From Rhizaria sp. SCN 62-66 (taxonomy: Eukaryota): a stretch of DNA of 64,000 nucleotides. This document shows positions 17,801 to 46,955 of this stretch, piece by piece. A program made the translations under genes and the position numbers. How positions within the stretch are numbered: the stretch's first letter is position 1; every line of letters starts with the position of its first letter. The notes under the pieces were generated by a model. The model saw nothing but the letters and a program-made list of their open reading frames with translations, did no database searches and was not told the origin of the DNA. The stretch lies in NCBI GenBank assembly GCA_001724265.1, contig MEDY01000001.1, forward strand, positions 124,001 to 188,000, in the 5' to 3' direction.

Positions 17801-20800
17801 ATGTTTGAGGGCCTTCTAGAGCAGCTTCTGCTGCGTCTGGTGGGCGAGTACGTCGACGGCCTGAACCGCGACCGCCTGCACGTCAGCGTTTGGCAGGGCG
17901 ACGTCGTGCTCACCGACCTCAAACTCAAGCCCGGTGCGCTCGACTTCCTCGAGCTCCCCATCCGCATTATTGAAGGCAAGCTCTGCCGGCTGACGATCAA
18001 GGTTCCGTGGCACCGCATCCACTCGGAGCCTGTCTGCATCGCCATCGACGGCGTTCACGTGCTCTGCGCGCCCCGCACCGCCGCAGACGCGGTGCAGAGC
18101 CACGTCACGCGCATCCTTCGCCGCCGCGCAGACCTCAGCGCGCGCCTTGCCGCCGTCCTTGCCGCAGCGCCCTCGTCTTCGTCTTCTCCGTCTTCGGCAG
18201 CTGCAACGGCTGCCACTGCGGCCAGCCCAACTGCTCTGAATACGGATACTACCGAGGCTGGTGTGACTGCGCTGACGTACGGCACCATTCTGGGGCCCGC
18301 CGCGCCGCCCGGCTCATCCTCCGCCCCCTCACTATCGGCGTCCTCGAGCTCCAGCGCGGTGGGCGCGGCTGACGCCGACGCCGACGCCGAAGATGTGGCC
18401 GCGTTGTCCGACGCCTCGCTGTCCTGGCCGGAGCGCGTGCTGTGGCACGTAAAGCGCCGATCCGCCGCGCACGGGGCCGACGTGCTGCTGCGCGCGCTTG
18501 CCGCCGCTGCCACCGACGCCGCAGCGGCATGGTCCGCGGCCGCCGGGCGCGGGCTGCCCCAGGGGGCCGGCGCCGAAGCCGCTGCCGCCGCCGCCGCCGC
18601 CGCCGCCGCAGTCGTGCGGACGGCGCGGCAGGCCGGGGCGGGCGGGCAGGGCGCTGGGCTCGGTCTGCGCACCGGTACGCTAAGTTAGGCCGCCATGGGT
18701 GCGCTGGCCGCGATTGAAGCCGCGGTGGGGGATGCAGCGGCGGTCGAGAAGGTACTTGCCACGCTCTGTGGCTGTGACCTCTCTAGCAATAACAGCAACA
18801 ACAACAGTCCTAACGCGAGTAATGGCAGTGAGAGCGCTGCTGCTGGGGCCACAGGCGGCACTAGCGCTGGCGCCGGGACAGGGTTGACTGTAAACACGGA
18901 TGCGCCGATGGTGGCAGTGGTTGGTGGGGCTGCGTCCCCCGCCTCTGCCGCGGCTGCCAATAGCACTGCCACCGCGACGCCCGGCACTGCCGCGGAGGTT
19001 GGGGGAAACAAGGCCGGGTGGCTGCCGTGGCTGCTGTCGCCCATCACCGGCAGCAACAACGTCGATGGCAGCAACAGCAACGGCGGCACGCCGACAGGCT
19101 CCGGCCTCGCTGTGCCCTTATCGTCATCGTCGTCGTCTGTTACCGGTTTTGGCCCCGGCCAGTCGCCGACCAGCGCTGGCGTCGTCGCGGGGCACTCTAA
19201 CAGCAACACGAGCGGCACTGCGACAGGCACGGGCTCCGGCGCTAGTACCGGTAGTTCCGCGAGTGCAAGTGCAGGCAGTGCCAAGGGCATCACGGAGCGG
19301 CTGCTCGAGTCGATCCTGGCGAATCTGCAGGTGACGGTGAGCAACGTGCACGTGCGCTACGAGGCCAACGACACGACGCACGAGCACGCACCCGCCACAG
19401 CCGTCGCAAACAACAACAGGAACAATAACAGCATCAACAACAACGACAACAACAACCACGGTGGCGCGAAGGCTGGCGGTGCATTGCAGGGCAATTTGAC
19501 ATCGTTGCAAGAAGGGCTTGCTTCCGCAGGCAGCGCCCTTGCGTACTACACGAACCTGCGCTCGCGGCCTCAGCGAGACGGCCACGATAGCGGTGGCAGC
19601 GGCAGCGGCGGCGGTGGCGGCGCTGGCGCCGGCGTCAGCGCGGTGGGGGCTGTGGGCCCCCGTGCGTTTGCCTGCGGTGTGTCGCTCCACTCGCTGTCGG
19701 TCACGCCAGTTGCCAAGGCCACCGCGGCAGCGAAACAGGGGGCCGCGAGCGGTGCGAATAGATCGAGGCCTGGATCGGGCAGTATGGTCACGCCGCGCAA
19801 CCTCAACAGCACGGCCGCGAACGCCCATAACAGCAACAGCAACAACTCTGCGTCGGCCTCGTTCCCGTTGCCCGGCACCGGTGCAAGCGCAAGTGCAGGC
19901 CAGGCCGCGCCCACCGCTGCTGCCGCCGACAGTAGCCGCACACTGCTAGAAGCCGCAGCGCGCAAGACCGTGGTGCTCGACGGTTTCTCGCTGTACTGGA
20001 ACTCCGCCACCGACGACGCCATCACGGCCGCGCTGGCTCAGTGGCGCCGTGGGTCATCGGTCGCATCCGCGTCAGCGCCGGGCAAACACGGACGCGCTGC
20101 GCAGCAACTCCAGCAGCAACAACAGCAGCGGGGCGCGCAGTCTCGGTCTGGCGTGACGGCACTCCGCAGCGGCAGCGCTGCAACAGCAGCAGCAGCTGAA
20201 GACGGCGACACTGAGGGTGCGACATTGCTTCAGCCGCCAGTGCCGCGGCTGTCGCCCGAAGCGCTGCACCGCGAGTACGGTGTGGAGCCTCTGCTGTGGC
20301 AGACGCTGGGCGGCAAAGAGCGCGCGCTGCTCATGAGCAAGATCCCCGGACTCCCGCGCCCGCCGCGCAAGGCGAAAACCGCCGCCGCAGCCGCCGCCAC
20401 GGCTGGTGTCGCGGCAAACTCATCACAGGTGACTGCAACAGCGACGGCGGCAAGCTCTGGGCCTGCGAACGCGTATGGCAACGGTGGCCACGCGTTGTCG
20501 CCGCGGCAGCAGCGGCGGCAGCAGCGGCAGCGCCTGGCCGAGGCCTGCGCGGCGGGTCTCCTGCCGCCCGCGCTGCTGGCGCTGGCTGCCCACCAGTCGC
20601 GGCGCCGGTACCGGCACATTCTGCGGCCGCTAACGCTGACGGCCACGGCGAACCTGTGTTCGACCGCGCCCGCAGCCGTGGACATCGCAGTCACGCCGAC
20701 CGACTCGCTCAGCGCGACCGCGAAACGCTTCTCGGACGCGAATCACGGCGCTCACGGCACTCCTGGTACACATGGGGGTACCAGCGGGCCAGCATCGTGG

Positions 20801-23800
20801 ACAACACACACCGCGCTTGCAACGCTTGACCTAGCCCCGCGCGGCGCGGCGCCGCGGCCGGTGCAAGTGCAGCTGACGCTCGCGCTGCCGTCACTACGGC
20901 TGCTGCTGCCGCACTCGGCGCTGCACGACGCCGTGGCCGCGGTCAAAAAGGTCGAGGCCAACGCGGCGCGCGCGGCCGCGGCGGCGTTCAACGCGGAGCT
21001 GCCGCGCCCGCTGTCGTGGCGGCTCTGGCGGCTCGACTACGAGGCGTATTTGCGCCGTCTGCGCTCGTTCGTCGCCGAGAGCGAGTTCACCGCAGCTGTC
21101 ACGGTGCCGGTGCTGCTCGCGCTCACCGACCCCACGCCTGCGTCTGGGAACAGCGGCACTGCCGCGGCGTCTGCTCCCAGCGGAGGCGCTTCGCTGCTCA
21201 CGTCCGCCGCTGCGGCAGCGGCGGCGTCTGCGGCCGCTGCTGCCGCGGCCAACGCTGCGCCAGTGTCGATCCGCGTCGTGCTTTTGCCTCTAGCGCGCGC
21301 ACGGTCTTACACGCCCGCGCCAGCGCCCGCTGCTGAGGTGGCCGACGAAGCGTTGTTCTCATCCCTCACGTCGCTGACGCCACGCGTACCGACACACGTG
21401 ACCACGGCGGCCGCTGTCTCGGTCGGCCGGACAGGGTTGGTCCCGACAGCGGGCGCCACGCCCGCCGCCGTCGCCGCCACTTCCGCCGCAGCAGGGTTCA
21501 ACGAGCTGACGTGGTGCGACGGCATCACCATCCCCGCGTACTACGCGTATCCGCCGCAACTCGCGTCCGCCTCCGCTGCGGTCACAAGCTCAGTGACCGC
21601 TGCGACAACCATCTCTGCGGCGGCGGCGGCGGCTGCTGCTGCAGCGGCGGCGGAGCGACAGGAGTATCTGACGACGGTGCTGCCGCGTCGTCTGTTCGTG
21701 CGGCACCGGTGGCAGCACGCGCTTCTGATGGTGCGCGCCGTCATCCGCCGCTCCGCCACGGCCGCGGGCTCTGTGTCGTTGGCGTCGATGGCGAAGCTTG
21801 ATGCCGCGGTGTCGGTGCAGTCGGTGCAGCAGAGAGCTCAGCACGGCCCGGCGCAGTTCCGCGACTCGGGCGTCAACGCCATCTTCCCCTTCGTACACCC
21901 GAAGTTCACCGCTCTCCTGCACGCGGGCTCCCCCACCGCGAACAACAACAAGCAGAACAACAACAGCAACAAGCCCGTCGCGCCTGCGTCCGCCGCGAAC
22001 GCCGGCCTTCACGGCGCGACAAGCCCCGCCGCGGGCGCGCGCACGCGGGCGCGCGCGGGCAGCCTCGTGCTGCCGCCGTCCGCGCTGGGCGGTGACCCGG
22101 CGTCGCGTCCCCGCGCCAAGCCCTGGTCGTGGCCGCTAATGCGCCGCTTCACCCGGCTGCGGCGGCTGTATCTGTTCCTCCTCCCGCGGCTGCCGCAGCG
22201 CCGCGCGCCGTGGGCGCCCGCCGCGACGCCGGCGCAAGTGCGCGCGGCGCACGCGATCGAGCGCTGCGTACCGGCGCCCGTGCTGGCGCTGTGGCGTGCA
22301 CTGGCGGGCGCGCAGGCCGCGGCGCAATGGTAGCACTGCGCGCGGCTCGTCGAGCTGCAGACGCGCCGCGCCGAGGCCGAAGCGCGCCACGGTGGCTGGT
22401 TCGGGGGATGGTTCGCGGGCGGCGGGAGCACCGGTGGCGCGGTGGCTGGCCAGAGGGCGGCGCAGTCGCAGCAAGGCTCTAGCACTGCGGATGCGATCAC
22501 ACTGTTCAACGCGTCCTCTGGCGAATCGCTCTCTGGGAGCACTGCCGGAGCGGCTCACCCCACCACGGTGCTGTCGCACGCGCCGTCGACAGAACTGCCT
22601 GCGCCGACGCTCATTGACGCAGTCGCGCCCAGTGACGTCAGTGGGACAGCAGCGGCAGCAGAAGCGCCACTGCGGCCGCAGCCGCGGACGTCGTCGAAGC
22701 GGCGCGGAGGCAACGAGCTCAGCCTCGTCATGCTTCGCCCCGCTGTCACCGCCACTGACACCGCTGCGACCGGCAGCACCGGCCCTGTCGTGCCCACGGG
22801 CGCTGCTCTCGCCGCTGCGGGCGCTTCAGCGGCAGTGTCCGCGGACGTTATTGCTGACGTCGCCCGCTGTTTGCCGCACTTGGCGCTGACGGCGGCCGAC
22901 ATCCGGTGCATTTACGCGTTTGCTTGGGCCGAAAAGCACTCCACGGGTCAGCTCCCGCTCTCAATCGGCGCGCGCGCTCGGCCCGGGTCCGCGGGCTCCG
23001 CCTCTGCGTCGTTCCCGCCGCTGGCGCGCCTGGCCAGCCGGCCGCAAAGCACAGCTTCGGCGGCAACCATCGGGGTGCTGCCGCCCGGTCTGTCTGCCGC
23101 TGTGGCCGCGGCCGTGCGCGTGCGCGTACCGACTGTGGCGCTGCGTGTAGACGCCACGTTTGACAACATCGCGATCGTGGTCGTCGCGCCGCAGACGCTG
23201 ATTCCAGCGCACTGGCGGCTGCAGCAGCACGGCGTGCCCAAGAGCGCGCGCGCTCCCCGTGCTCGCGCCGGCACCGCTGCGGGCAAGGGCAAGCGCAGCG
23301 AGAGCGTGACCGTCGCCGCTTCTCGGCTGTCATCGGCTGCGACGCACCCTGCTGACGAGGCCATGTCGTCGTCCCTGCACACCGGCCTGCGCAGACTGCC
23401 GGCGGCCGAGACCGCGGGCCGCGCGCGCGCTGCGACGGGCGTGAGCACGGACTCTGACTTCGCCAGCCGCGCGCGCACGGGCAGTCTGCCGACCGACGAC
23501 CACGCACAGACGGTCTCTGCTAGCGACAGCATCCCGGACGTGCGCGACAGCAGCGACCATGATGACAGCGCGGGCCGCCACAGCGTGCTGGGCTACCGCG
23601 GCGGCTTTGGAGACCACGCCAGCGACGGCGGCAGCGATACAGCGGGTTCCGTGCGTTCGCGCTCATCGCGAACTGACTCGTTTTCGCTGAATGACGATGC
23701 TCCTGCCGACTCGGGCTTCGACTCTGCGTCCGACTCCGACGGTGACGCGAGTTTTGGCGCCACTGCGGCCGCGGCGGGACTGGACCCCGCGCTCCTGACA

Positions 23801-26800
23801 CGCGGCCGCGCTGCTGCGGACGCTGTTCTGCCGCCGCAAGTGCCGCTGCTGCGCCTTGTCATCGGCGGCGCGGTGCGTTTCGACCGCTACTGCTCCGCTG
23901 CGATAATCGCTGCTGCTGGAGAGGCGCCCACGGGCGGTGCGGCCACCGGTGGCTCTGGACTCGCAGGCTCGCCGGCGCCCATTGCCATTGCGACCATGCC
24001 CGCTAGCGCGGGTGGAAGCCCCGGGACCTCCGCTGCAGGATCCGCGAGCTCCGCCACAAACGCGAACGCAACGGCTAATAGTAGCATTGTCTCGATGCCG
24101 ACGCCGCCGCCGTGGTCGTTGCAACTTACGCTCACTGCGCTGCGTGGCATCGAGTACGTGTCCGCCGATCCTCTCGTGCAAACCGACGGTTCTACTACTG
24201 ACAACGCAAACATGGAGCAGGTTAGCAGTGTTGTGGGCCGTGGCTTCCTGTGGCGCCGCGGTCCCGCCGTGTTTGCCCGCGCGCACACACAGCTGGTGCC
24301 CGTGGAAGCAGTCACGGGAGCGCACTTCGATCACCGCGAGCAGGCGCGGCTCGATGCAGAACACTCGACCGCGCGCAAGCGCCGTGGCGGGCTCAGCAGC
24401 GGCGTCAGCTCCGGCGGCACTCTAGCGCTCCCGACATCGATGTCGACGGCGGCACGGAGATCGCTCTCCTGGCTCGACGACGAAGACGAGGATGTCGCCG
24501 TTGCGCCCGGTAGCAGCGGCCCCGTGACGCCACCGCGGCGCACTGCGAGCCCGGTCGTGACGACGGGGCTGCCGCAGAGGTCGCTGTCGCCGCTGCAGGT
24601 GGGCCGCGACCGCAGCGGCAGCGCTGTGTCGACCGTCTCTCGGGGCTCGCAGTCGCAGTTCGTGGACTGTGAGGAAGCCGACGTCGCCGCCGTGCGCGCC
24701 GCGCTCCCCGGCGCCGCCGCCGCCGAGATCGCGCTTGCCGCCGCGCGCCGCGCAGAGGAGCTCGCCATCGCGACCGCTGAGGCGGCCGAGGCGGCCGCTG
24801 CAGCCGAGGCGGCTGCGCGCGCGCAACAGGACGACGACGCCGCTGCTGCGGCCGCGGGCGACGCTGAGGCTGCCACCGCTGCCGCGGCCGCTGCGCGGGA
24901 CGAAGAGGTCGACGCCGAGCTGTCGTCGCTGCCGCTGCCCGCAAACCCGCTATTCAACCTGCCGCCGCTGCCTTTCCCGCTGGCGCGCGAGGGCGACCAC
25001 GAGCCGATCATCAGCGTCTTTGCGTGTTACGGGCCCGCGACGGCTGCGCCGTGGGTGCTGCCCGCCGCGCTTGCCAGTGGCAGCGCTGCGGGAGCCTCCG
25101 CCGGCGACGATGAGACTGCGTTGACTGTGACGCCGCCTCCTGGTGTCGCCGCGGTAGTCATTGAGCCCCTTGCGCTGCTGGTGCCGCCGCGTCTCATCAC
25201 GATGATGCTGCTGTTTGCGCTGAACGCCAACACGGAGACTCCTGCTCCTACGCTCTCCGCGTACGTTCAACAGCCCGCTGCTTCTGCGGCAACATTGCCT
25301 ACATCTAGCGCGTCCGGTAGCAGTGCCATTAGCCCTGCGTCGACTGTTGGCGCAAGCTCTGGACTGTTCCCCAGTCAGTCGTTCTCATCGCGTCTGGCGT
25401 CCCTCTCACCGCTGCTACCGTCGCCCTCCGCCGCTGCTGCTGCTGCCTCGCCGTTTGAAGTCGCCACATCGCCGCCCAAGCCTTGGTTTGCGCACGTGCT
25501 TGTGCTGCGGCCTGCCTTCGTCTGGCCCTGCCACTTGCAGCCTCCCGCGGAGAGCGTCCCTGCCATGATTGCGACGACTGCGCTGACTAAGGCCGCTGCA
25601 GTCAAAAATGCAGTCGAGGGCGCGCTGGTACTTGAAAGCGCCTGGATTGAGGTCAAGCTGGGTCACCCGAGCGCAAAGTCCGCCGCGCGCTCGCCGCAGG
25701 CAAGCAACTTGAATGGCGCAAACGCCGCGTTTGGGCTCGACCCCATCGCTGCGGGCACAGCTGCGAGCGCAGGTCACGGCGTCGCCGGTGACCTCGACGA
25801 TGAAGAGGACGAGGGCACGATCAACGTCGCCGTGTCGCTCGCAGGTGGCCGCATTCTGCTTGCGCACCGGCGCAGGCGGTACCAAGCCATTGATCAGATG
25901 CCCGCCAGTGCGAACTCCAGCCATCGTCTTGGATCTCACCGCGATGGTGGAGATATCGACGATGACGATGACGAGCACGAGCATCACGGTCATGCGCATC
26001 ACGAGCAGGGTCGCCACGGGGCTGCGCCCGCGATTGTGCGCGTGACTGAGCTCATTTCTGGCCGCCGCCAGCGCGCGTTTGCGTCGGGCGCTGTTCCTAC
26101 TTACGTAGCCGCGCACGCGAGTCCGTTCCGGCGTCCGCGCTCTGACAGCAGCATCAGCAGTAGCAGCAGCAGCGCCAGCGCGGTCGCAGCGGCTGCAGCG
26201 GCTGCGTCTATGGCTGACGACGAGACGCTGCCGCGTTGGCTGCTGCCGACGCTGGGGGCCGACTGTGATCTGTATGCAGGCGCCTGCGCCCGCGTTGCAG
26301 TGAGCCTGCCGCTGGGTGTCACTGTCGACAAGAAGGCCGCAGTCGGCGCCACCGTCGCGCGTCTGCGCCACGTGGCTGCGACGACGCTGCGTGATCTATC
26401 CGTCGCTGCTCGCTCTGGCCCGCTCGCACCCGCTCTGAGTCAGGCCGCGCTGCGTGAGCTCTCTTCTGCGCACGCCAGCGTTACTGCTGCGGCGTCCGCT
26501 GCTGCCGCCGAGCCCGACTGCGTTATTGACGGCTCTGTTGGTGCCATCACCGTCACGGTCTCGCCCGCGGTCGTCGCCGCGCTGCACTCCGCCGTGACTA
26601 CGCTCGTGGCTGAGGTGGCCGAGTCAGCGATCATGGTCGAGACTGCGCGCCATAGCGGCGATGACGCTGGCGCCAAGCACGCGGCTCAGCGGGAGGAGGA
26701 CAGCAAGACTGAACAGCAAAAGCCGTCTGCGTCCACTGCCACGAGTCCCACCAGCGCCGCCAAGGACTCGCCTGTGGTGCCCGCGTGTTCGCTCGCTGCG

Positions 26801-29800
26801 AGCATTTCCGTTGCTCTGGCCACGCTGCCGCCGACCGAAGCTGAGATCTTGGCCCTGCTGATGCCGCCGTCACTCGCCGCTCTGCTGCCGCCGGTCGTGC
26901 ACAGTCGCATCACACTCGCTTCGCTCACCGCAGTCATTGTCACCAAGCCGTTCGGAGTTGCTGACAGTATCGCGAATGCGGTTGGCAGCTGGGCCGAGGC
27001 TGCGCGGCTGCGGCTTGCCGGTGTGCGCGTTGCTGCATCGGCTGCCGGTCCGGAGAATCTCGCGTTGCGTGTGACGGCGGCGACTATTGATGGTCGCCGC
27101 ACCGAGACGAGCCCGCTGTACTTCGCGCCCGCGCTGAGCCACACCTACACCGACGGCGTATTCACGCTCACGCGCAATGTGCCCGCAGCCGGCACTGCTC
27201 CTGGTGAGCTTGAGCGCGCCGTCGAGCGCACGATGCCGATGCTTACTGTCACCGCGCCTGTCGCGTCACGCCACGCAGTCACGGCTGACATCTCGCGCGT
27301 ACCGCCCACTCTGCCCTCCACGGCGCCACAGCACCGCTACGCGCGCGCGCACGCCCCGCTGTGGCAGTCGCCGCTGGTGCCGAGTCTGCCGAGCGCGAGC
27401 GTCGCAGCGGGCGCGAGCCGGCGGCCTGAGGTCGAGACGGCGATCGGTGTCGCGCTCGCGCCTCTGTGCGCGCGCTGGTTCCCTGATGTCGTCGCCAGCA
27501 TCAACGCTATCGCGCGTATTGCGATCACGAATCCTGTTTCCGACGCTGCATCAGCTGCACCGGCTGCTCCCACTGTGGTTCCTGTGGGCGCGACGGCAGC
27601 ATCTAACGCTGACGCTGTGACTGCACAGCCCGTCGCAACCGCCTCTGTCGGCGCGCCAGCGCTGCGCCGCCTCATTGCGCTGCGTATCAGCCTGTCGTCC
27701 ACGCGTGTATTCGTGCCCGACTGCTCCGGTCTGCTGGCGCCCACGCAAGGTCCTTGCTCGGCCGCGCCGCCCTCCGTGCTTTTTGAGGCGTGTTTCCCAC
27801 AAGGTGCAGTCACGATCGAGTCGTTTGCTATTGCTCCGGGTGCTGCTGCCACACAAGCTCAACGCACCGCTGCAGTTCAGGCGGCCGGCGCTGCCGCTGC
27901 GTCAGCCACCGTTGCGCAGCCGATGATCGTGGCTGGAATCGACATCATCGCGACGGATCCTACGATTACTGCGCTCATGTTCCCTCCTCAGGTTGATGTT
28001 AGTACCGTCAGTGTTCCAAACTCTGAACCCGAGGCCTCGAAGACAACAGGAACTGCTGAGGCTCCTGCTGTGAAATCGACCGCGAGCGAAAGCAAATCTC
28101 TGGAGCCGACTCGTGTGCCCCTCATCATCCCTCTGACGACGCTCTACAGTCTTTTGTCACTGCCTCCACCGTCATCGTCTCCCCCAAGCAGCAATACGAG
28201 CATCAACGTGAGCAGGCTTGCTGTGCGCATCCGGCCTCAGGCCGAGCTTGCCGCGGCCGCCGCGTTTGGGCTGCCGCGCGTTAACGCATTCCAGCTGTTT
28301 CCGCCACCGGCCGCGCCTGCAGGCAAGTCTGCCGACGCTAATTCGGCGCCCTCCGAGTCTCAGGTGACGATTGACGTCGCTAATGCCGGTTTTACGCACG
28401 CGCAGCCGCTCGTATTGTCGCTTGTGGACGCAATCATCAGCCACTTGCTGCCGCCGCTGCTCGCGCCCGAGACGTACATCGCCGGCCTTGCGGGAGCTCC
28501 TGCACCAGCGGCTAGCCCGGCCTCCGCTCCAGTTCAGGCTGCCTCAGATTCCTCTATCAATGCCGCTGAGCTCGACAATGCCGCGGATGACGGCGACGAT
28601 ATGACCGGTGCGATGAGGCGCATGCTCCTGTCTGCGCTGTCACGCTACCGTGTGTCGCCCGCACCGTTGTATGCTCCCACAATTGCCGTCCGCGCGCGCG
28701 CTCTTACGGCGCTTTTGCCGCAGCGCACGAGCGGCTTGTTCGTGCGCATGCGCAAGCTCTGGCTCGCCGCAGATGCTAACAATTGCGCTACCAGCTCTGC
28801 TGCCCCAACGCATGTGCAGCCGCTTTGGCCGCGTCCGCTGACTGCAACAGCGCTTGCGCGTGGTCTAGTCGAGTTGTGCTTGCCTTTGTCGTTCTCGCTG
28901 CAGTCGCCCGCACCCACGCATCCGTACGTCAGCGGCGCCAACGCCCGCGCAAGCGCGCCGGTGGTCGGCTCGATGGCCCTGGCTGCGCTGGCGCCCGCGC
29001 TCAAGGCCGGGTTGATGCACGCTCATCTCACGCGTGCAGACGTGACGGTGGCGCCAGTGCGCCACACCTGGGTTGGTGCCGCACCCGCCTCTGCGCCCGC
29101 GAATGCGCCCGCGAATGCGACTAATGGCGGTGATGAGCCACGGTTTGAGGCGCAGGGCTCGGCGGCCGGTGTGGACCCGACCAAGCTGCTGCAGTCGACT
29201 GTGGAGCGCACGCGGCTTACCTTCCGTGCCGCTCCCTTCATGTTGCGCACTCTGACGTCCTACGCTGCGCACCCTGGCGACGGCAAACACGTCGCGAAGC
29301 CAACTTCCACTGCGGATGACGAGGATGACGGCGGCGTGACGTTTCCCAGTGGCGTGACAGGCAACCTGATGTTCGTGCCCATTGCGCTCATTGGCGACAT
29401 CACGCCAACGCGCGCCGGTGGCTCGCAATCTTTCGGACTGATGGGCGCCGACGCGGGCGCCGGTGCGGGCGACACTGTGACGGGCGTCCGCGCGCCGTGC
29501 GTGCCTCGACAGGCGACCGTGACAAACGTCGACGCCGGCGCGCTGCCGCCGATGATTCCCGCGCTCGCGCCTGACGATCCCGTGATGGTGGCGTCGTACA
29601 ACGAGCTCATCTTGCAGCAACATGCGATGCAGCCGCAGTCGGCCGACAGAGACGCAGCCAAGGAGCGTTCTAGCAACGATGATGCGAGCGCTGACTTCAT
29701 GAGCCGCTGGCATCGCGGGAGCGAGCTCTGGGCGCCGCTCTGCATTGACATCTGTGTTCCGCGCGTGCGCGGTGTCCTAACTTCTGTGCTGTACATGCGC

Positions 29801-32800
29801 TTGATCGAAACCATCGAGAACAACTTCAGTGCGACTGGTGGCAACATCGCCAGCTCTTTGCTGCCGCATGTGCCGATCAATATCGGCGATTGTTCGCGTT
29901 CTCTGCAGAACCTCGGTCCGTCGCTCGCGCAGCCACCGCTGGACGCGTGGGTCCCACTGCCGCACTCGAATCTGCACATCTCTGTGCGCGTGACCTCGAT
30001 GCGCGTGCGCATTCGCGACAACCTACCCCGGCTTCCCCCGCACGACACGGTTGCCTCTGCGACCCCCGCCACTCTGCCGCCGGCCTTCTCAGGCGAAGTG
30101 ACGCTGGCGGGCGCGCGAGTGCTGGTGTGCGACTACGACACGCCCGTGGGCGTTGCTGGCTGGGTCGCGGAGGCCGCGTCTGCTGCCGCCACCGCCACTG
30201 CTGCCGACACTTCTGCCGACACAGTTGGTAACACAGGTTTTGCGTACAGCGACCTGGGTCGCGGCAGCCTCATCGACCCGACGCTGCGCACGGCGGCGAC
30301 TGTGAGCGTCACGGCGAACTTTGTGAATATAGCACGTCTCTCGCACGACACAGCGGCCGATCCTTGCCCCGTCACGATCATATCTGCCGGCGAGGATCCG
30401 GACGCGCACGGCGCCGATGGGACAGATAAGAATGCAGACCACTCTGACGACGCTGCATCTGCACACCCTAACTTGATTGCGCCGCCGCCGTCCATGTCGC
30501 CAGTACTTGCGGTTACCTACGCTGACTGCCGCGCGGTGACCCCCGCCCGCCCGCGGAAGCTGCTGCCGGCGCACGCCGCGGCGGCCCTGGCAGCGGCTGC
30601 GGGGGTGGCGCCTCTGTCGCGCGGCGTGCCCGAGCCGGTCGCTGAAGTCGCAGCGCCCATCTCTGGCCCCGTCCCGCGCGTGTGGGTGCGCGTGGCGTCG
30701 CCGGCGCTTACCGCGGAGCTGGAAGCCGTGTTCGGCGCCGTTGCGTACTTTGTGCGGGCGCACAAGGGCGCGCCTGACTGCCTACCCGGTCCCCTGGACA
30801 CGCCCGTCGCCGATGTCGATGGCAATATTATTGATGCTAACACAGAGACGAAGGTTGCTTTGCCAACGCTGGACCTTCAGCGGCCGCAGTCTATCTCGCT
30901 CACTGTCAACGTGTCTGTCTCGGCACCGCGCATCCGCGTGCCCTTCACAGCGATGCGTACGGGTCCCGCCATCGCGGTTGTTGCTGAACAGATCTCCGTT
31001 ACGTACTCTCGTGATGCGGCGACTGGTGGCGCTACTGCATCGTTCCCTGGTGCTTTTCGTCCCGGTTTCGACTGCATTCTTCTTGAGAACATTGCGCGTG
31101 GTGCGCTCGTCGTGCGTGTGAACGCTCTTCAACTGTTACTGCCAGAGTCTGCATATCGCACCGCAACAAGCCCCACTGCCCAGGGCTCTGGTCCTGCCCT
31201 CGGCGCCGTTGCAGCAGCTGCCCAGTCAACCTCCGAGTTGCGCTTGTTCTTGTCGGCTCTCGCTGCGACGACTCGAGTCATGAAGCCCGGCTCTGGTGAC
31301 AGCAACAAACCCACCGCGCTCGCGCCGTACGGATCCTCCGCTGCAAAGCCCGCGGTTGGTGCGGCGGCGTGGGGCGCAGCGGCGGCTGAAAGCTTGACGC
31401 TGCACCCTTTGGAGCTCACGGTCACTCTCGGCGTGCTCATTGCAGCACTGCCAACTGCGAACTCGCGCCTGACGCCCACAGTCTCCGGCAACGGTGCTGT
31501 GCCCGCGCTGATCAATGCCGTCGATGAGTCGGTGTTCTCCAGCAACGTCTGTGTCACCGTCGCCAGCGCCAGCCCCGCGCCGCGAAACGCGTCCAGTGCA
31601 GCCCCTGCAGCTCCGCTGCCGCCGGTCACGATTGTGGCGTGTCCGCGTCGCGTGCCCGTGATCATGTCAGTCGTGTTCAGCGTCCTCTCGCGTCTGCAGC
31701 TGGGGCTGGCCGCGCTCGGTGTGATGCCGTGCCCACCAGCGCGATACCCGTATCCAGCGCCCGCGCCGCCCACGCACCTGGAAGTGTTGCGTTTTACACT
31801 GCAGCTGCCGGCCGCCGATGTCGTTGTCTGCCGCTCCCTCGGCGACTCTACAGACGCTGCCGGCGAGCCGCTGCCGCTGGCCGCCAGCGCGATGTTGGGC
31901 GCGACGATCCGCGTCACCGCGCGCGACTTCTCGCTCTGCTCCGACGTGACCGAAGAAGCGCACCCCGACGCCGCGCAGCCGGGCTCGCGGTCCGCCGCGA
32001 CCGCGCTGGCCATCACGGCGACCGCGGGCGTGGACCTGCCCGCTGGCCCGCTGCTCGAGGGCCTGGCGCGCTCCGTGCCGCCCGCGGCCTCAAGCGCAAG
32101 CGCAGCGACCGGCGTGCTCAGCGGGGACGGGTGGCGCGCGCGCCTGGCTGCGGCGCTGGCGTCCGTGTCTTCGCGCGGCGGCACGCTGCCGCTGGCGCTG
32201 CTGCCGGTATGGGAGCCGCTGCTGTCGCCCGTCACTGCGCGCGTGAACGTGAACAACCACGCCTCGCACGACAGCGAGCGCGAGCTCCAGCCGCAGCAGC
32301 AGCAACAACAGCAGCAGCCGAGGCCTGTGGTGCTCGGCGACTCGATGGTTGCCCTGCCCGCCGCCGCTGCAGAGACTGCGCTGACTGCGCTCGCGCCCGC
32401 GGTGCGGCATTTTGCAGCCGCCTCGCAGTCAGGCTCACGGCCACAGTCGTCACCGCAGTCCGTATCAAAGCTGCTGGACACCGCGACCGCGATCGAGGTC
32501 GCGGTTTTGACGCCTGTGGTGGTGATAGCTTCACTGTCGGCACTGGCGCATGAGGCTGCTGACGCGATTTCGACAGTAGCTGCGCTCGTGCCCGCTGCCA
32601 TCGCGTCACTGCCGCCGGGGCTTGTGCAGCCATCGAAGCAGCTACCGCTGTGCCAAACAACCGCGTCGTCTGTCCCTCAGACTGTCACGCCCACTGTCTT
32701 CACACATTCGCTGCAATCCGCCGCTACAGCTGCCGCGTTGACCGCGGTCGCGGGTCGGCTTCGCGCGCTACCGAGCCCCGCCCCATCTGGCTCGTTAACA

Positions 32801-35800
32801 GCAGCGCAGCAGCTGTCGTTCGCGCAGCGGCCGCGTGCGCGCGTAGCTGACGCTGCAGTGCTGCGTTCGCTGCATCTAGCGAAGCTTCGCGCGGGCTCTT
32901 GGCGCGCCGCAGATGCTGCGACGCGTGCCGCTGCCGCCGAGGCCGCGGCGCACAGTATGTCATCTGAACAGCTCAGTTTGGCGCCGGCGCTGACATCAGC
33001 GGTCTACTCGACCATCGCCACCGTCGCCGCTGCGGGCAAGACCGGCGGCATCTCCGGCGCCGTCAAGCAGTTCCTCGGTATCTCCGCCTCTGGCACGGGT
33101 GCTGAAGTCGGCGCAGATGCTGCCGCCGCAGCCGCGACCGCCGCTGAGGCGATTCCACTTGTTCTGGCCCAGGTCGCGTCCGTGCCCTCTTTCCACGACG
33201 ACGAAGACGACGGTGCCACTGCTGATGTGGCCGCGAGCGATCTCCCCGCGCTGCCGCGAGGACTGTGGCACTGGTGGGGCGGCGCAGCCGCTGCTGACCC
33301 TGCTGCGCCCCCGTTGTACCACAACTACCCCCTGGTCTCGCCAGCTGCAGTCGCGGCAGCTGCCAACGCGCACGCCGCTGCTATTGCGGCCGGCGCCGCT
33401 GACTCTGGCGGTTGGGGAGTATTTTCAGCCTTCACCGGCGGCTCTGGCGAAGTATCGGCAAGCGCAGCCAGTGTTGCTGCGAGTGCGAGAATGGCGATGC
33501 CAGAGGAAATCACGCCGCTTGTTGGTGCGAAGGCGCGCAAGGCGCTCGCAGCCGCGCTGAAGGCAGCCCGCAGTGGCTGGGACGCTCCGCACGCCGCCGA
33601 GGTCACAGTGGCTGCGCTGGCGCAGGGCTACGTGGTGCTGACGCGCGACAGCAACGGCGAATGGTCTCAGACATCTGCACTGCACAGTGACAATCATGCC
33701 AGCGGCGTCGTTTCACCTGCTAATACCGCCGTCTCTGCTATTGGCAGTGCTCTTGTGGGTTAGTCGCCGCAGTACACTGCGTGGCTACACCCCCGTGCAG
33801 TCTGTGCGCTGCTGCCGCATTCCATGACCCCGGTCCGCGCCACTGCGATGCTCTCTGCTCCCACAGCAACGGCGCTTCAGTCAGCTGCTTCAGTTCCCGA
33901 GGGCGCGTTTGCTGATGGCGCGTTAACGAGTGGGTCTGTCAGCTCTCGCCAGCTCCGCTCTCTTTTCACACGCATCACCACTGTCACTGAGTCTGCCAAC
34001 GCTGAGAGTGCGGTCACGACACTGTGGTACGCTCAGTATGATACGCTCTGTGCAAAATCACCCACTGTCGCACCGCAGCCACTGTTCACAGTAACCAATA
34101 CGAGCTCGCTTGCGCTCTCATTACGGCGCGCAACGACACTACACGCTGGATCGCAGTCGTCTGCGCGCGCTGCGACGCTTCCCGTTGCGCTTCCCTCTGG
34201 CTCCGCCGTCGCGCCCGTCTGGCTCTGGGCCGCCCCACGCTCACGTCAACAGCAGCAGGCGCAAAGCGAGATGAACGGTGACCACGAAGAGTTCTCGCCA
34301 GTCGCTTTTGCGCTCTCGTTCGCGATCGCTGGTCACGACCGCTACAGCCCGCCCGTCGTCGTCTCTGCCGCCGCCACCGCGGGCCAGCGCGCGGCTGGTG
34401 TTGTCGTCGAGTCGGTCTTCACACTGCGGCTGCGCAAGCCCACTGCGCCTGTCCCGCCGGCCACTGCGGCCGCGCCCGTGACAGCGACGGTGCTGGCTGA
34501 CGCCGCGCGCGACTCCTGGGCTCTGCTCACGGTCACCGCACGCTACAACACTGTCACGGGCGCGTGCGCCGTCACGTTGTGTGACACAGCGCTGCCCATC
34601 GCGGCCGCGCTGCCCGCGCCCTCCGCCGCCGCGCCCGTCGTGCTGGGCAACGACACCAAGTACTGCATGTGGGTGCGCCAACGCAACCTGTGCCGCCGCG
34701 CGCCGACCGTTGCCATCGCGGCGCCTGCGGGCTCCGCAGCGGCCCCGCGTCACGCACTCGTGGTGCACCCGACCGACGCGTCCGAGGGTTGGGTCTGCGC
34801 AGCGCCGGGCACGGTCGTCGAGTTCGCCTGGGAGGCGCCAGTGACCGCGGCGCCCGCCACGGCCGCGGCGCCCGGCTGGGACTGTGCGCGGTGCGCGGCG
34901 CGGGCCGCGGCGGCGCCCGGCACGGCGCACGTGACTGGTAGCTGCGGCTTCACGCACCAGCTGGAGCTGTGCTTCACGGCGCCGCAGCAGCACGCGCTGC
35001 GGCCGAGTGCGGACCCCGTCGCGGTTGCTGCCGCCGCCTCGCCGGGCGCCGCCGCGGTGCCGCCCGCGCTGCTGGTCGACAGCAGGCTCTACTGCCCCGT
35101 AGTGAGCCCACTGCAATACAACCAGACGCTCACGCTCACGGTCCCGACCGCTGCGGCCGCAGCGGGGGCGGCTGCCACCGAGCCCGCGACTGTGGTCGTG
35201 AGCAGCTGTTTTGACCACACCCGCGGTCGCCCCGCGCTCACGGTCTCCGGTACCGACTCCGCGCGCGCCGCAACTGCTGCACCGGTCGCCAACAACGCAG
35301 CTGCGTTATTCCTGCCGCCGTCCGTGTTCTCCCTCTCTGTCTCTGTGCCGCGCGTGAGTGTGCTGCTGTCGGTCGAGGCCCGCGCGCGCCGCTCGCAGCG
35401 CGTGACGGCGCTTGCACGCGCCCTTGTGCCCGCCGCTGCAGCGACCACCGCGAGACTCAGCAGTGACAGTGCAAGCGCATCGAGCAATGCAAGTGCCAGT
35501 GCAAGTGCCGGTGCGAACGCTACTGGCGCAAGCTTGAGCGCGGAGACTGTGCGCAACCGGCTGCTGTTCTCGCTTGCGTCGCGCGTGTATCTGCCGCCCG
35601 CGCCCACGGTCACGGTATCTCTTGTCGGCGTCGCGCTCTCAGCCGCGTTCTACACGCTCGGCCGCCCGCGCACACGTCTGCTCGCCAACGCTGTTGCAGC
35701 ATCCACTGCCTCTCAGAGCGCCTGGAACGCATCTGCGGCCGAGTCACCTGCCAGTGCTCTCACGCGCGCGCTCGCCGCATTCGCGCCACCCGTGTTCGCG

Positions 35801-37849
35801 CCCGCTGCTGCAGCTGCTGCCTAGAACTCGGGCCCGCAAGCCATGCGCCGCGGCACGATTGTGCGCGCGCTGCCGGAATCCTCGGTGACTCTGCACTGCC
35901 ACGCCATCTACGCGCACGAGATTGCCCGCGCCTACGCACCGCCAACGCTCGCATCTGCCTCTGCCAAGGCGGCCGCGCCGCAACAGCCGCGCGCGCCGTC
36001 GGCCGCGACGGGCAGCGGCGGCGCTGTGGAGCTGGGCACGCTGTCGTACGCCACCGCCGTCGTCGTCGCCATGCCGCCGGTGCCGTGCGCGCTGCGCGCA
36101 GAGACAGCCGCTGCTGCTGCTGCAGTGGGCGCCTCGGACCGTGACAGCGATGTCGGTGGCGTGTCTCTGGCTGCGGGCACTGGCGCCAACGCCGCCGTGC
36201 TGGCCGAGCTCTTCCGCCCGCTCGACGCGCTCTTCATCGAGAGCAGCTCCGCAGTCGCGAGTGCGCGTGCGAATGCAGCAGGATCGAAAGCCGCGAGCAC
36301 CGCGCTGACAGCGGCCCGTGCGGCGCTGTCGCCGCTGCGGGTGCACGTGTCGTTCCCCGCGCTGACCGAGGCGCCGGTGCCCGCGACGCTGCGGCACGCG
36401 CTCGTCACGCTCCCGCAGTGGGCCTCGTGCTCGCTCCTGCTTCCCGTCCCTACCTCCGCCTCTTCCGTGGCCTCGGCCTCTGTGTTGGCGTCCGCAGCTG
36501 CGAAGCAGTCGGCCATGAGCGGAGGGTTGCGGCACGTGTTCATGGCGTCGCCGCAGCCGCTGCTGACCGACGCGCTGACCAGCACGGGCCCGGCGCTGCT
36601 GGCGGGGCTTGTCGCGGGCTCGTCGGCGGCTCCCGGCACCGCTGCCGTGGGCGGCCACGCGGCCACCGTGTCGTCGGTCCTCGCGCTGCCCGGCGCCGCG
36701 ACGCACGCTCAGGCTGGTGCCGGCGCGGGTTCTGGTGTGGCGGCCGTGGCAGGCGCCGGCGTGGCCGCTGGCCGGCTGCCGTCCGTCGCCGTGACCGCCA
36801 GCGCGTCCCTCATCCACACGCTTATCGCACCCACAGTCATCTCGCGCGTTTTGGCCGCCGTGCCGGTCATCGTCGCCGCCATCGCGCCCCTCGCCCAGCC
36901 CCCTGCGGACGCTACGGTGTCTGTTGAGACTGTGACCGAGACTGTGGTGGCGCAAAGTGGCGAGCCGCTGCGCGTGGGACAGATCGAGCTCATGGGATGG
37001 TCGGTCGCACTGGGATTCGCGCAGGGAATCGACAACGAGGTCGACATCACCACAGACGACGACAGCGGCGCCAACAGTAGTGCCCCTACAGTCGAAGCTG
37101 ATAAGCAGAACTCGAGTAGCTCGCTGTCAGGCGCTGCAGCAACATCGTCTGCCGCTGCCTCTGTCTCTGTATCTGTCACTGCGGCGACGGCGAATAACAG
37201 CGGCGTGCGCAACGAAGACCTCGGACTGGGTCTGGGCACCGGGCTTGCGCTGTCCGACGTGCTCGACCTGGCGCCCAGCAACCCGCTGGTGCAGCTGCTG
37301 CTGCGGCTGCTGTCTCAATGGGGCGCGCTCGTCGTCGTCGCCGGCCCACACAGGGCCACGCCCGCGCTCGCCACCGCCGCCACCGCCGCGGCTGCGCGCG
37401 CCGCAGACGCCGCCACGCGGGTCGCCACGGGCGCGCTCGCCGCTGCGGCCGACGCCGCGGGCGACGCGGACGCGGAGGCAGAGGCAGAGGCCGCCGCGGC
37501 CGCTGCGGTCGTCGCTGCCGCTGCCGAGGCTGGCGCCGCTGCGGCGGGCGGCCACGGAGGCCACGGCACCACACACGCGGGCTCCGTCGTCAGCGGCGCT
37601 GCAGCTGCTGGCGCGAACGCGAGTGCGAGTGTGCGTCGCGCCGGAGGCGTCGTGTACGTTGTGCCAGCAGGCGACTCCGCGGGCGCTGTGGCGGCGCTCG
37701 TAGGGCCTCTCGTCGAGCAATTGAAGCACACCGTGCTGGCGCAGGCCGTGGGCGCGGGCGCCAGCGCGTCGGCCGAGGGTGCCGCCGCGGTGGTCGGCGC
37801 GGGGCTGCAGGCTGTGTGGGTCGGCATCGCCCGCACCTTCACATCGTGA
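17801..37849 (+). CDS. VPS13: Giant VPS13-family bridge-like lipid transfer protein, 6682 aa if four in-frame TAG codons are read as sense
   Basis: Chorein-N at the start (MFEGLLEQLLLRLVGEYVDGL...VWQGDVVL.DLKLK...LELPI.I.EG..LTIKVPW). VPS13 motifs continue in order in the same frame: ILANLQVTVSNVHVRYE (~19310), LDGFSLYWN, WSW...RRLY, GWFGGWF (~22395), WEPLL (~32210) and GNDT...VRQ...PGTVVEFAWEAP (~34650-34840). All five track ORFs share one frame. Ends in TGA before AT-rich DNA. Confidence 0.88.
18686..18688 (+). other. In-frame TAG no. 1 in VPS13 (TLS*AAMG)
   Basis: CTA AGT TAG GCC GCC ATG; the frame continues into the 18695 ORF. Confidence 0.75.
22331..22333 (+). other. In-frame TAG no. 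2 in VPS13 (AAQW*HCARL)
   Basis: CAA TGG TAG CAC TGC; lies between the conserved IE...LWRALA helix and the GWFGGWF motif. Confidence 0.88.
33761..33763 (+). other. In-frame TAG no. 3 in VPS13 (LVG*SPQY)
   Basis: GTG GGT TAG TCG CCG; 20 open codons lead in frame to the 33824 ORF, which carries VAB-like motifs. Confidence 0.8.
35822..35824 (+). other. In-frame TAG no. 4 in VPS13 (AAAA*NSGPQ)
   Basis: GCT GCC TAG AAC TCG; 6 codons lead in frame to the 35843 ORF, with no AT-rich intergenic DNA. Confidence 0.8.
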
Positions 37850-38424
37850 GTGAGCGAGTAGGATCACTAAACTTGCGTGATCGATACATCATCATGAATT
37901 CAGAATTAAGAAATACTTCAATCACGAAACATATCTATAGCGTTTATTAGTTTTAATAATACAGTAATTCTTGCTTAAGAATGGCATTTGGGCGTTGATA
38001 TCACAACATGCAGTAATTCCTTCGTCCGTCTGGGTGAATGTCCGATCAGACCTTGTTGAGTAAGGTTTAGGTTTGTTTTTTTTTCACAATTAAGAACAGA
38101 CGATATACATGTAAGGAGAGATCGTAGTGGCAACTACTGAATAGCTCTTAGAACCAAGTCACATTAATTCTTAAAACGGTGTATTGGGACGAATTACGAG
38201 TAGACGTCGGAACAGGCACAGCACACCGTGCGCCGCGACACCTGCCGCACACGCGCGTCCTTAGCAAGTGACCGTGAGGCCGCCCGGGGACGCGCGCGCG
38301 CAGCGGTGTGCGCTCAAACAGGAGTGGTTTGTAAGTAGAAAGGGTTGCCGTGCTTCACAGCGCCGCCGCCGGTGACGAAAAGCGGCTGCGTTAGGACGGC
38401 ATGCGAACGCACATAGCGTTGCAC

Positions 38425-39197
38425 TTACGCCTTGTAGCCGGAGAGGGCAATGACGATGGCGAAAAGGAGGAGGTACATGTCGAAGGCCGCGATGATGCGG
38501 ATCCAGGTGAGGTAGCCCTTGGTGCAGCGGTCGTTGCCGACGGCATAGCAGTCAGCGGGGCTGATACGGGACCAGATATCGAAGTAGCCGAAGAAAGCAG
38601 CAGAGCCGATCATGCAGATGAGGGTCAGGGCGGAGAAGACAATGAAGAACTTGAGGGAGTTCTGCTCGCCGGAAAGCACGGTGTAAGCGCCGGCAGCACC
38701 AATGAGGAAGAGGTGGATGCCGATGCGCTGGACAGTGGAGACGGGAGTGAAGACGAAGAAAACGGCGCAGAAAACGAACCAGACGGAGAAGGCAAGGAGG
38801 GGGATGCCACCGTTGTTGTTCACACCGAAGGAAGAGGAGCCGCTGCAGAGGGAAGATGGAGGATATTTGAAGAAAACGACAAATAATGGTGTGAGTATCA
38901 GAGCCAACAAGACCAGTACAGTCGTGTGATAAGAAGACACAACTAGGGCTTCACACGCTTAAGGTGGTGCGCACTCAACACAAAGATTAAGGAATATCAA
39001 GTTGCAGTTAATTCATGATTGGCCAAAGCCACATTAGGTGTGCAAAATACTGTGTAAGGATGACAAAAGTGCAACGGGGTCGTTACGTACCGAGCGGCGA
39101 GGACGGCCAGAATAAGGATGGAGACGAAGCAGATAAGGGAGATGGTGGGGAAACCATCAAGGGTGAAGTCCGCAAACGTGATCTCGAGGGGAAGCAT
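38425..39197 (-). CDS. Small multi-pass membrane protein of unknown family (paralog A, 174 aa), 2 exons: 39197-39091 and 38842-38425
   Basis: MLPLEITFADFTLDGFPTISLICF... spliced through GTACGT...CAG (39090-38843) into the 38425 ORF. Clear similarity to the 40145 gene. Strong C-ending codon bias. Stop is TAA. Confidence 0.82.
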
Positions 39198-40144
39198 CTC
39201 GACTATCAAAGGTCAACAGAGTAGGAAGAGTGAAATATGAGAGATAGGAGAGGACACAGTGAGAAGAGACTGGGGGGCGTGGAAACAGGACGTAGGAGGT
39301 GTCGGAGTTGCTTCGCAGTTGAAAGATAAAACCAGAGTAATAAGCAACGCGGGCGGAAAGGCAAGAAGAGATTCGAATAGAAGGGACACTGGGCAGTGAT
39401 GTCGGAGAATACTTGTTCTTCAAGCAATGAAGAGTAACGAAAACGAGGCGTGTTCTTTCCACCGATTCGAAACCGAGCAGGCTTCGGTCATCATGTCGTT
39501 TTCCCACGTGAATCATGGCGTGTCTTAACACGAGAGAAGAGTTGTAATTTTAAAGAAGTGTCAATCAACATGCGCAGAAGCATCCCATTTCTTCTCGTGT
39601 TCTTTACCAAGGTTCTACACTGCACAATAGGGCGCGGGGCGATCGATTCAAACGGCCACCCCTTAGAATCCAGCTAGGCCGTTACCTTGGATTTTAAATC
39701 AAGCCGCTGGTCGTTTGAACGTGTTTCTCCCCGACAGATTCTGACATAGATTCTTCGTGAAACAGAACCAGTCATGGTGCGATGTATGAAAGCGGTCTTG
39801 TTTAATCAAGTACTATTAAAACATTTAATGCTGGTTTCTGCAGTCACGTGCAATACGCATTTCCATTCGGGTCGATCCCAGCAACGAAACGTTAGACCTC
39901 TGTCACTTTCTCTTTCGGACTTTACCATCATATAATGCTTGTATAACGTCATGCCATATCTGTTTTTGCTTTATACTTCGTTTGATGTATCTATCTCATT
40001 GCTAGTTTTTGCGGAGCACTCGTTCTCACACACCTTTTTGACTCTCAAAACATTTCCTTCTGACGCCTCCTGGTTGCCTCTTACTCATCCTTCACGCCAT
40101 TTCACTATTGTTCTTTTTATCATTGTTTTAGTTCGTCGCGCCAG

Positions 40145-40744
40145 ATGAGTGACACCGGATTTGCCGATTTCGAGCTGGATGGCTTCCCTGCTATCTCCGT
40201 TATTATGATTGCGATCACCACTGTGCTTGCTGCCCTCAAGGCCAAGTCCTCTGGTCAGCTCGCGATCCCCACCACTGGCAAGGCCATGGTGATCACCTCG
40301 ATCTTCATGATCGTTATCTCCGTCTTCATGGTCTTCGCTTCCGACCAGATGCGCCAGATCGGTGTCCAGCTCTTCATCTGCGGCATTATCGGCACCTTCG
40401 GCACCATGGCCGGCAACGCCCTCGCCCTCCCCGTTTACCTCTTCTTCACTGGTTTCACCTTCCTCTGTATGATCGGCTCCCTTGCCGCCTTCTCCCACAG
40501 TAAGATTGTCTATGACGTCTCCAAGACTGACTGCGCTAACTACTTCGGCCGCCTTGCTGACCCCCCCAAGCGTTGCGACGGCTACCTTGAGTTCCTGTGG
40601 ATCATCACCTCGTTCTCTATCTACATTGTCGGCCTTGCTGTCGTCCTCGCCTTCGCTGCTTTCTCCGGTATGGCCGAGGGTGGCGCGTCCGGCAACTCCG
40701 GCAACGCTGGTAACAACAACAAGGCTGTCGAGGAGCAGGCGTAA
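40145..40744 (+). CDS. Small multi-pass membrane protein of unknown family (paralog B, 199 aa)
   Basis: MSDTGFADFELDGFPAISVIM...; hydrophobic segments and a Cys pair in the last loop. Strong codon bias. Stop is TAA. Confidence 0.88.
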   Translation: MSDTGFADFELDGFPAISVIMIAITTVLAALKAKSSGQLAIPTTGKAMVITSIFMIVISVFMVFASDQMRQIGVQLFICGIIGTFGTMAGNALALPVYLFFTGFTFLCMIGSLAAFSHSKIVYDVSKTDCANYFGRLADPPKRCDGYLEFLWIITSFSIYIVGLAVVLAFAAFSGMAEGGASGNSGNAGNNNKAVEEQA

Positions 40745-41837
40745 GTGCACTCTGAGTGCTCTGTCTGACTGAACTCTTCCTTCTTGTATGCATCCGTGCG
40801 TGCGCCGGAGGGATGACGCATCGACTTCTGTCCGCTGTGGGCGCTCTTGGGCGGTGCACGCGCGTTTAAAAATCTCGCGCACGTGTCTCTCCGTCCTTGT
40901 TGAGTGCATTTCAGCGCAAATGCTCGCATCACAGCGATGTGTCTGACATCTGTTGGGCGCAGCGCTTCTGAATGCTGTCTTCAATAAGAGATCTTCTGTG
41001 TTTGTTGTTCTGTGGCGTTTTTATTAAGGTTGCACGCAAATAAAGTTCTCTTTTACTAGTAACCTTTATCTCACACACTTGTTGCGGTCGACATTCATGT
41101 TCCAGCGCATTACACTGGGAGATCATCACCTCGGCCGTTCCCGGAGCGTTTGTGGTGAGACAGACAAAACGTCATTAAGCTGGGTATAGTAGGCCGTGTT
41201 AAAAACGTTTAAGTACCTCGCTTTAAAGGAATATTTTAGCGTAGTTCCGAAAAACTGGGCGCTCACTTTAATTGAAATATGCGTCCGATGACGTTGTTAA
41301 TGCGGTACATGTATGATAGCTCTCATATATGATGTAATTGCGGAGGAATTTCGAAGTAAAGATGGAAAGAAGGCGGTTCAGGAGGGTGCGGAAGGTGCGG
41401 ATTAAATCGTCGCAAAAAACTGTGTATAGATATGCCTAACTAGCAACACTAAGAAAGTACCAAATAAATACGGCCATATATTAACCATATTCTTAAGAAT
41501 AAACAATCAAACCGATGGATATGTAGCCCACTTCGAGGTCTCAGTGCTCTCACTCGACCATTCGCGAACCACATCCGAGACCTCAACAAAACACACGTAT
41601 GCCGTTTTACCATCACAAAATAGAACTATACAATGAACGGAATCATACATAAACACGGACTTCACCCTTAATTCATGAGGTGAACCCCCATGATTCTAGC
41701 AGTTTGTTGTCACAATGCGTCAAATGTCAGCAATCACGAGTTGTAACCGACAGCGAGGTTCGACTGGGCGCACCTCTCTGCACGCCCAGGGCCATATTTC
41801 GCGCCCCTACCACGCTCACAGCGGTCTGTAGCCACGC

Positions 41838-46923: not shown

Positions 46924-46955
<32 letters not shown>

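Follow-up and report, generated by a model that had tools for sequence, protein, structure and literature searches.

A reading frame of about 20 kb that is interrupted four times by TAG, and by no other stop codon, raises the question of whether TAG still ends translation in the organism that carries it. The frame lies at positions 17801-37849 (+ strand) of a 64,000-nucleotide (nt) stretch of Rhizaria sp. SCN 62-66 (contig MEDY01000001.1, positions 124,001 to 188,000), referred to below as the window, whose own numbering is used throughout. It forms a gene for a VPS13-like, or bridge-like lipid-transfer, protein. A fifth in-frame TAG was found on the opposite strand, in a neighbouring gene for an ABCC-type transporter. 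As the initial annotation had proposed for the first four codons, reading TAG as sense is still the best single explanation, and we give about an even chance to the version in which TAG is decoded as glutamate (Glu) or glutamine (Gln), by means of a young or weak reassignment or of a suppressor transfer RNA (tRNA).

Between 17783 and 37849, the only stops found in the giant frame were TAG1 (18686-18688), TAG2 (22331-22333), TAG3 (33761-33763) and TAG4 (35822-35824), all on the + strand, followed by the closing TGA at 37847-37849. The first ATG is located at 17801, with a TAG (17780) and a TAA (17744) in frame just upstream, and the resulting gene comprises 6,682 codons plus the TGA, with no detectable intron. 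Over the same 20 kb, the remaining five frames contained between 71 and 214 stops each, and the position-specific composition of the giant frame predicted 47.5 TAG, 10.9 TAA and 12.2 TGA codons, so that a frame open to this extent is far beyond chance. The GC content at third codon positions (GC3) was 0.72-0.81 in all five segments delimited by the TAGs and 0.47 in the two flanks directly adjoining the ATG and the TGA, and non-coding composition began right 3' of the latter. After TAG1, which is codon 296 from the ATG, the frame remained open for 6,386 codons without any frameshift. The five open reading frames (ORFs) described initially are thus a single VPS13-like frame joined by four TAG codons, with neither TAA nor TGA before 37847. 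The codons reported 3' of the TAGs (GCC, CAC, TCG and AAC) were also verified and share no common +4 context, and the next ATG was found 6, 60 and 18 nt past TAG1, TAG3 and TAG4, respectively; the 108-nt gap given for TAG2 presumably means a non-ATG start.

Introns are easily spotted in this genome, given the strong contrast between AT-rich introns and GC-rich exons. The two recognisable ones in the window (167 and 185 nt) are AT-rich and follow the pattern GTACG...YAG. No intron-like AT-rich island was found in the VPS13-like ORF, where just two 60-nt windows fell below 0.45 GC, neither of them at a TAG, and the sequence surrounding the TAGs was GC-rich and coding-like. The 7-mer GTACGCT found 12 nt before TAG1 (18674-18680) also forms the 5' splice site (9449-9455) of an intron in an LMBR1-like gene of the window. 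Inspection by hand revealed that the sole acceptors past it that keep the frame were GAG (75 nt) and AAG (78 nt), in GC-rich sequence, all other candidates shifting the frame. As about one GTACGCT is to be expected in a sequence of this length (20 kb) and the acceptors downstream are poor, we judged this to be a chance match. No GTACG was present near the remaining four TAGs.

The gene with the fifth TAG (41838-47785, - strand) encodes an ABCC-type (MRP-like) transporter, as identified by Pfam and PDB matches, and consists of exon 1 (47785-43004), an AT-rich intron of 167 nt (43003-42837; GTACG...CAG, read from the sequence) and exon 2 (42836-41838, including the TGA), with the exon junction confirmed by relatives. 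All its domains were found in order within the two exons, with no frameshift. The TAG (46895-46897, - strand) corresponds to residue 297, after a conserved N-terminal region and ahead of the first membrane domain, and the sequence on both sides of it was conserved and collinear: upstream, residues 21-136 aligned with the relative P0006 (56% identity, E 1e-36), and a second alignment with the same protein (residues 225-694) passed straight over the TAG, the corresponding residue in P0006 being Glu. In three relatives (51-59% identity) this column contained Glu, Gly and Glu. Between the ATG and the TAG, GC3 was 0.81 and no stop occurred, compared to 3 and 6 stops in the two alternative frames, and no ATG was found from the TAG to the following conserved segment. 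A contig from the Joint Genome Institute (L001) was identical over the ABCC region, TAG included. Comparison of the N-terminus with solved structures and NCBIfam gave no match, its support coming from the metagenomic relatives, and this identical contig was all that metagenomes yielded when scanned with the ABCC alignment. Residues ~137-290 (within 46898-47785, - strand) belong to an Ala/Ser-rich insertion of ~150-190 residues, with a run of ten Gln, that was missing in all three relatives; the TAG lies at its downstream edge.

In-frame TAG occurred 5 times among the ~16,250 codons of coding sequence (CDS) in the window, and in-frame TAA and TGA were absent. The five codons affect two of the 13 recognisable genes, which are unrelated to each other, and in both of them homology supports coding around a TAG, the ABCC codon being bracketed by conserved sequence and TAG1 being apparently spanned by a VPS13_N domain (see below), in what is a small sample of 2 genes and 5 codons. 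None of the 11 ORF-based ends in the window was a TAG (7 TAA, 4 TGA). TAG ordinarily accounts for 18-35% of terminators, and at such a share the probability of finding none among 11 ranges from 0.01 to 0.11.

The N-terminal residues of the giant protein matched positions 1-93 of the Pfam VPS13_N profile (PF12624; 17801-18079, + strand) with an E value of 1.8e-34, or 6e-30 when the first segment was taken alone. Its score (119 bits, cut-off 80) places the protein within the chorein/VPS13_N family. A second match (19283-19387, + strand; profile positions 140-174; E 7.3e-4, 17.8 bits), which contains NLQVTVSNVHVRYE, was obtained when the segment between TAG1 and TAG2 was searched alone and is by itself below the family cut-off. 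Language-model features of the same segment were nearest to VPS13_N clusters, with a score of 0.88 that is just a lead, the bar being 0.9. As VPS13_N matches are found on either side of TAG1, the domain appears to span this codon, with a low-complexity insertion of ~430 residues in between, inside which TAG1 is placed. The initial annotation had described VPS13 motifs in canonical order across all the breaks. Presence of VPS13_N on both sides of TAG1 agreed with this description, but the canonical order past TAG1 was left unsupported: the strings GWFGGWF, WEP and FAWEAP do occur in the sequence, yet Pfam gave no match whatsoever after TAG2 at E <= 10, including VAB/SHR-BD, the VPS13 C-terminal domain and ATG_C, and the repeat regarded as VAB-like thus finds no support.

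No further relatives of the giant protein were detected. An exhaustive HMMER search of 1.84 billion representatives with a 1,200-residue query that spans TAG3 and TAG4 (5100-6299 in the numbering of the printed translation) found no relative, and the two matches obtained were both pieces of the window's own ORFs (100% identity). The last 674 residues gave no feature match, and their predicted structure in the Atlas had a confidence of 0.30. No relative emerged from metagenome contigs scanned with the 3,809-aa middle segment, word-indexed protein searches for VPS13-like relatives returned nothing beyond one chorein-only match (P0015), and protein-cluster look-ups of the ORF pieces revealed no variant members. 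The demonstrable VPS13 likeness, judged from sequence comparison, is limited to the N-terminal ~530 residues, and for the ~6,000 residues beyond them, which are rich in Ala (22% Ala in the giant protein), no relatives could be detected. The protein resembles those with a chorein-N domain (VPS13_N PF12624, ATG2_CAD, BLTP3A_B) in its chorein match, in its great length and, more weakly, in a further VPS13_N match at the expected place, whereas the VAB/SHR-BD, C-terminal and ATG_C domains of canonical VPS13 had no counterpart here at E <= 10. A VPS13-like, chorein-N giant protein is therefore the limit of the present identification.

If TAG is decoded as Glu or Gln, the 20-kb ORF would make up a single gene, whose giant product begins with a VPS13/chorein region and continues into Ala-rich sequence that evolves fast, and the TAGs of both the VPS13-like and the ABCC genes would be translated and not terminate synthesis. 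The decoder would probably be a tRNA that has the anticodon CUA and carries Glu or Gln, the release factor would recognise UAG weakly or no longer, and UAA and UGA would be kept as terminators. Sense TAGs would arise from GAG or CAG codons, survive where long genes tolerate them and be replaced quickly. Three TAG sites could be compared with other sequences, and they presented GAG (TAG3) and CAG (TAG4) in a variant population and Glu/Gly/Glu in the ABCC relatives; these residues are compatible with either Glu or Gln, three sites being too few to decide between them. Their similar chemistry speaks for sense decoding, as no more than 41-47% of the changes that yield TAG begin at CAG or GAG. The rarity of the putative sense TAGs, their position in tolerant low-complexity sequence and their variation between strains would make the change appear young or inefficient.

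Reassignments that affect UAG alone have been described, with UAG coding for Leu in the rhizarian exLh and for Gln in Iotanema spirale (PMC5304391), and for Leu or Gln in phyllopharyngean ciliates (PMC11687900), and a ciliate is reported in which UAG and UAA code for different amino acids (PMC10553269). These UAG-reassigned organisms share with the present case in-frame UAG only and ends formed by UAA and UGA only, with preference for UAA, the ratio of UAA to UGA being 56:15 in exLh, 104:15 in I. spirale (PMC5304391) and 7:4 in the window. They also share an uneven use of UAG, some classes of genes having less of it. However, UAG is frequent in those organisms (384 UAG codons in 71 exLh transcripts; PMC5304391) and located at conserved positions, in contrast to the 5 per ~16,250 codons found here, which lie in variable stretches and of which two are strain-variable. 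Suppressor tRNAs were found for two phyllopharyngean genomes (PMC11687900). Unlike the UAG-reassigned organisms used for comparison, the genome studied here is GC-rich.

Several observations weigh against the decoding of TAG as Glu or Gln, and the rarity of the codon is the first of them. In-frame TAG was ~12-fold depleted in the VPS13-like ORF (4 observed, 47.5 expected). The same ORF contained 55 TTG and 295 CTG codons, beside 146 CAG; in view of this TTG:CTG ratio, TAG would be expected to be several times more frequent relative to CAG if it were decoded well. TAG was also absent from a gene of 4,260 codons for a TLDc protein, as well as from seven further CDS pieces. The ABCC proteins of the three relatives (1,535-1,782 aa) had been called whole under the standard code, which implies that they contain no in-frame TAG. 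A tRNA scan of the 64-kb window revealed no tRNA gene, and the Rfam scan revealed no family. Any settled reassignment must account for both the rarity of TAG and its variability between strains. In addition, the nature of the stops is less informative than it appears. In the initial annotation it had been argued that a decaying pseudogene would also gain TGA and TAA stops, and none is present, but the argument is weaker than claimed: in this GC-rich ORF, 1.9% of single-base changes create a stop, and 62% of the possible nonsense changes yield TAG. With this TAG share, the probability of finding only TAG is 0.15 for four stops and ~0.09 for five, which is weak evidence taken alone.

The main alternative is that the code is standard and the TAGs are strain-specific loss-of-function alleles: recent changes of GAG or CAG to TAG would have left the VPS13-like and ABCC genes dead or truncated in this population, other populations having kept intact copies. 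TAG is the commonest possible nonsense outcome, and it is depleted elsewhere, as corresponds to a stop; the Glu found at the ABCC site in relatives also fits this possibility. Large paralogous families such as the VPS13-like and ABCC proteins tolerate loss.

Comparison with other metagenomes revealed both recurrence of the TAGs and a variant that lacks two of them. DNA contigs from run X3 were identical to the window over TAG2 (21410-22680) and over TAG3 and TAG4 (33074-37900), and ORF pieces ending or starting at TAG1, TAG3 and TAG4 have been recorded from 5-6 contigs, with the 295-aa piece that ends at TAG1 recorded from 6; the contigs that repeat the TAGs may all come from one population and are not to be counted as independent organisms. 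In runs X4 and X6, which belong to other studies (2024-2025), contigs carried a T>G change at 33761, so that TAG3 was replaced by GAG (Glu), and a single X4 contig (depth 3.7) carried a T>C change at 35822, which replaced TAG4 by CAG (Gln). The variant therefore differs exactly at the T of the codon in both of the two TAG sites seen covered, at a local divergence of at most ~2% (19/933 bases in the X4 contig over TAG3). This coincidence fits derived nonsense alleles and would be rare for old, neutral sense codons. Among the strain differences (40 of 45), 14 were synonymous and 26 non-synonymous, and the ratio of non-synonymous to synonymous rates (dN/dS) of ~0.7 points to weak constraint on the 3' part of the VPS13-like gene. 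Intact codons in close relatives were therefore accompanied by relaxed constraint, as in a pseudogene. No RNA contig crossing a TAG was found among those listed, and the polyA-RNA contigs that fitted carried the letters of the variant, for which carry-over of DNA is possible. The direction of the differences, counted by hand, was not biased (A/T in the window at 20 sites, G/C at 17), and no insertions or deletions appeared among the differences listed against four runs.

The divergence between populations was unevenly distributed over 18000-37900. The 5' ~13 kb, which include TAG1 and TAG2, were near-identical where covered, with one difference upstream of 31045 among those listed, and the region from 32.3 to 37.2 kb differed by ~1-2%. 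This mosaic has the appearance of haplotype recombination, and the population would in that case be sexual.

Nevertheless, we consider it unlikely that loss of function under the standard code explains the five TAGs. The mixed lesions of a pseudogene were not found: five nonsense changes would have accumulated with no TAA, no TGA and no frameshift. Two of 13 genes would have been hit within 64 kb, a density which would mean that a large share of the genes of this genome are broken. The absence of TAG from the 11 ORF ends would not be explained either, and the almost complete identity between populations of the 13 kb that bear TAG1 and TAG2 would have left little time for neutral decay.

A second alternative, which we regard as quite improbable, is that the code is unchanged and the TAGs are rescued at the RNA or ribosome level, either by restorative adenosine-to-inosine (A-to-I) editing of UAG to UGG or by near-cognate readthrough. 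In favour of editing, filamentous ascomycetes present, as found here, intact genes broken by UAG alone, and restorative editing in fungi is reported to target UAG in otherwise intact 'pseudogenes' (PMC11156358, PMC10776026, PMC4817773). Near-cognate tRNAs are likewise reported to be able to read stop codons (PMC10573299). However, restorative editing is described as returning the ancestral residue (PMC10776026), and Trp was found at none of the three comparable sites, which presented Glu or Gln codons or Glu/Gly/Glu. The z scores of downstream RNA structure at the five TAGs were -2.25, 0.63, 0.27, 1.41 and 0.63, those of the controls being -0.20, 0.08 and -1.32; unusually stable structure (z < -2) was thus present at just one of the five, and the hairpin signal associated with ascomycete editing at none of the other four. 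As neither a common downstream structure nor a common +4 context exists, cis-programmed readthrough is not indicated, and four leaky stops in series would yield almost no full-length product. The genome is also of a different kind from those of the ascomycetes, and introns of 167-185 nt do not appear typical of that group.

Least probable of all, and very improbable in our judgement, is that the TAGs lie inside small in-frame introns or result from assembly or sequencing errors: the splice-site 7-mer before TAG1 would favour an intron there, but it is followed by poor frame-keeping acceptors, is expected about once per 20 kb and has no counterpart at the other four TAGs, and the same letters recur in the X3 contigs, in the Joint Genome Institute contig and in the ORF pieces from 4-6 contigs.

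With regard to its source, the stretch was present in metagenome runs from bioreactors, wastewater and activated sludge. Exons of ~65-73% GC and introns and spacers of ~45-50% GC indicate, from composition and gene structure, a GC-rich microbial eukaryote with spliceosomal-type introns. A trypanosomatid origin, suggested by the long intronless GC-rich ORF, was ruled out by these introns, and no mis-binned piece of the organism turned up among the prokaryotic genome contigs scanned. The LMBR1-like gene mentioned above (8404-10299, + strand) was delimited by Pfam profile positions and contains the 185-nt intron. The TLDc gene (48346-61125, - strand) has no in-frame stop of any kind along its 4,260 codons and is recognisable solely in its last ~165 residues, which form the TLDc domain (E 5.5e-29), the rest being low-complexity. 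Between the VPS13-like and ABCC genes, in a stretch of ~0.50 GC, two ORFs of 177 codons (38425-38958, - strand) and 226 codons (40064-40744, + strand) both end in TAA and, from translations inspected by eye, appear to encode multi-pass membrane proteins that look alike. An ORF on the strand opposite to the latter (40085-41020) had no match in Pfam.

To our knowledge, reassignments of UAG alone are known in a handful of eukaryotic lineages, nearly all of them found after the change was complete. Decoding of TAG as Glu or Gln in this organism would add to those of a rhizarian, a fornicate and several ciliates, and would be unusual in that the sense UAGs are sparse and polymorphic between populations. 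Our literature searches showed no report of an altered code in a GC-rich eukaryote from wastewater, although supplements may hold more. If TAG is indeed sense, gene calls made for this organism under the standard code would split at every TAG; in the public protein collection, both the VPS13-like and the ABCC genes are present as pieces. If the TAGs are instead nonsense alleles, they would represent ordinary strain-level gene loss affecting two large dispensable genes. Populations with and without given sense TAGs would, should TAG be decoded as Glu or Gln, show the onset of a stop-to-sense change, the efficiency of decoding and the sites at which such codons are tolerated. We tentatively suggest, as a possibility somewhat short of probable, that a reassignment is here near its beginning in a GC-rich non-ciliate, with UAG already off gene ends, read as Glu or Gln, rare, confined to tolerant parts of long genes and polymorphic between populations. 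In that case, populations of one species would embody the intermediate stage postulated by theories of code change.

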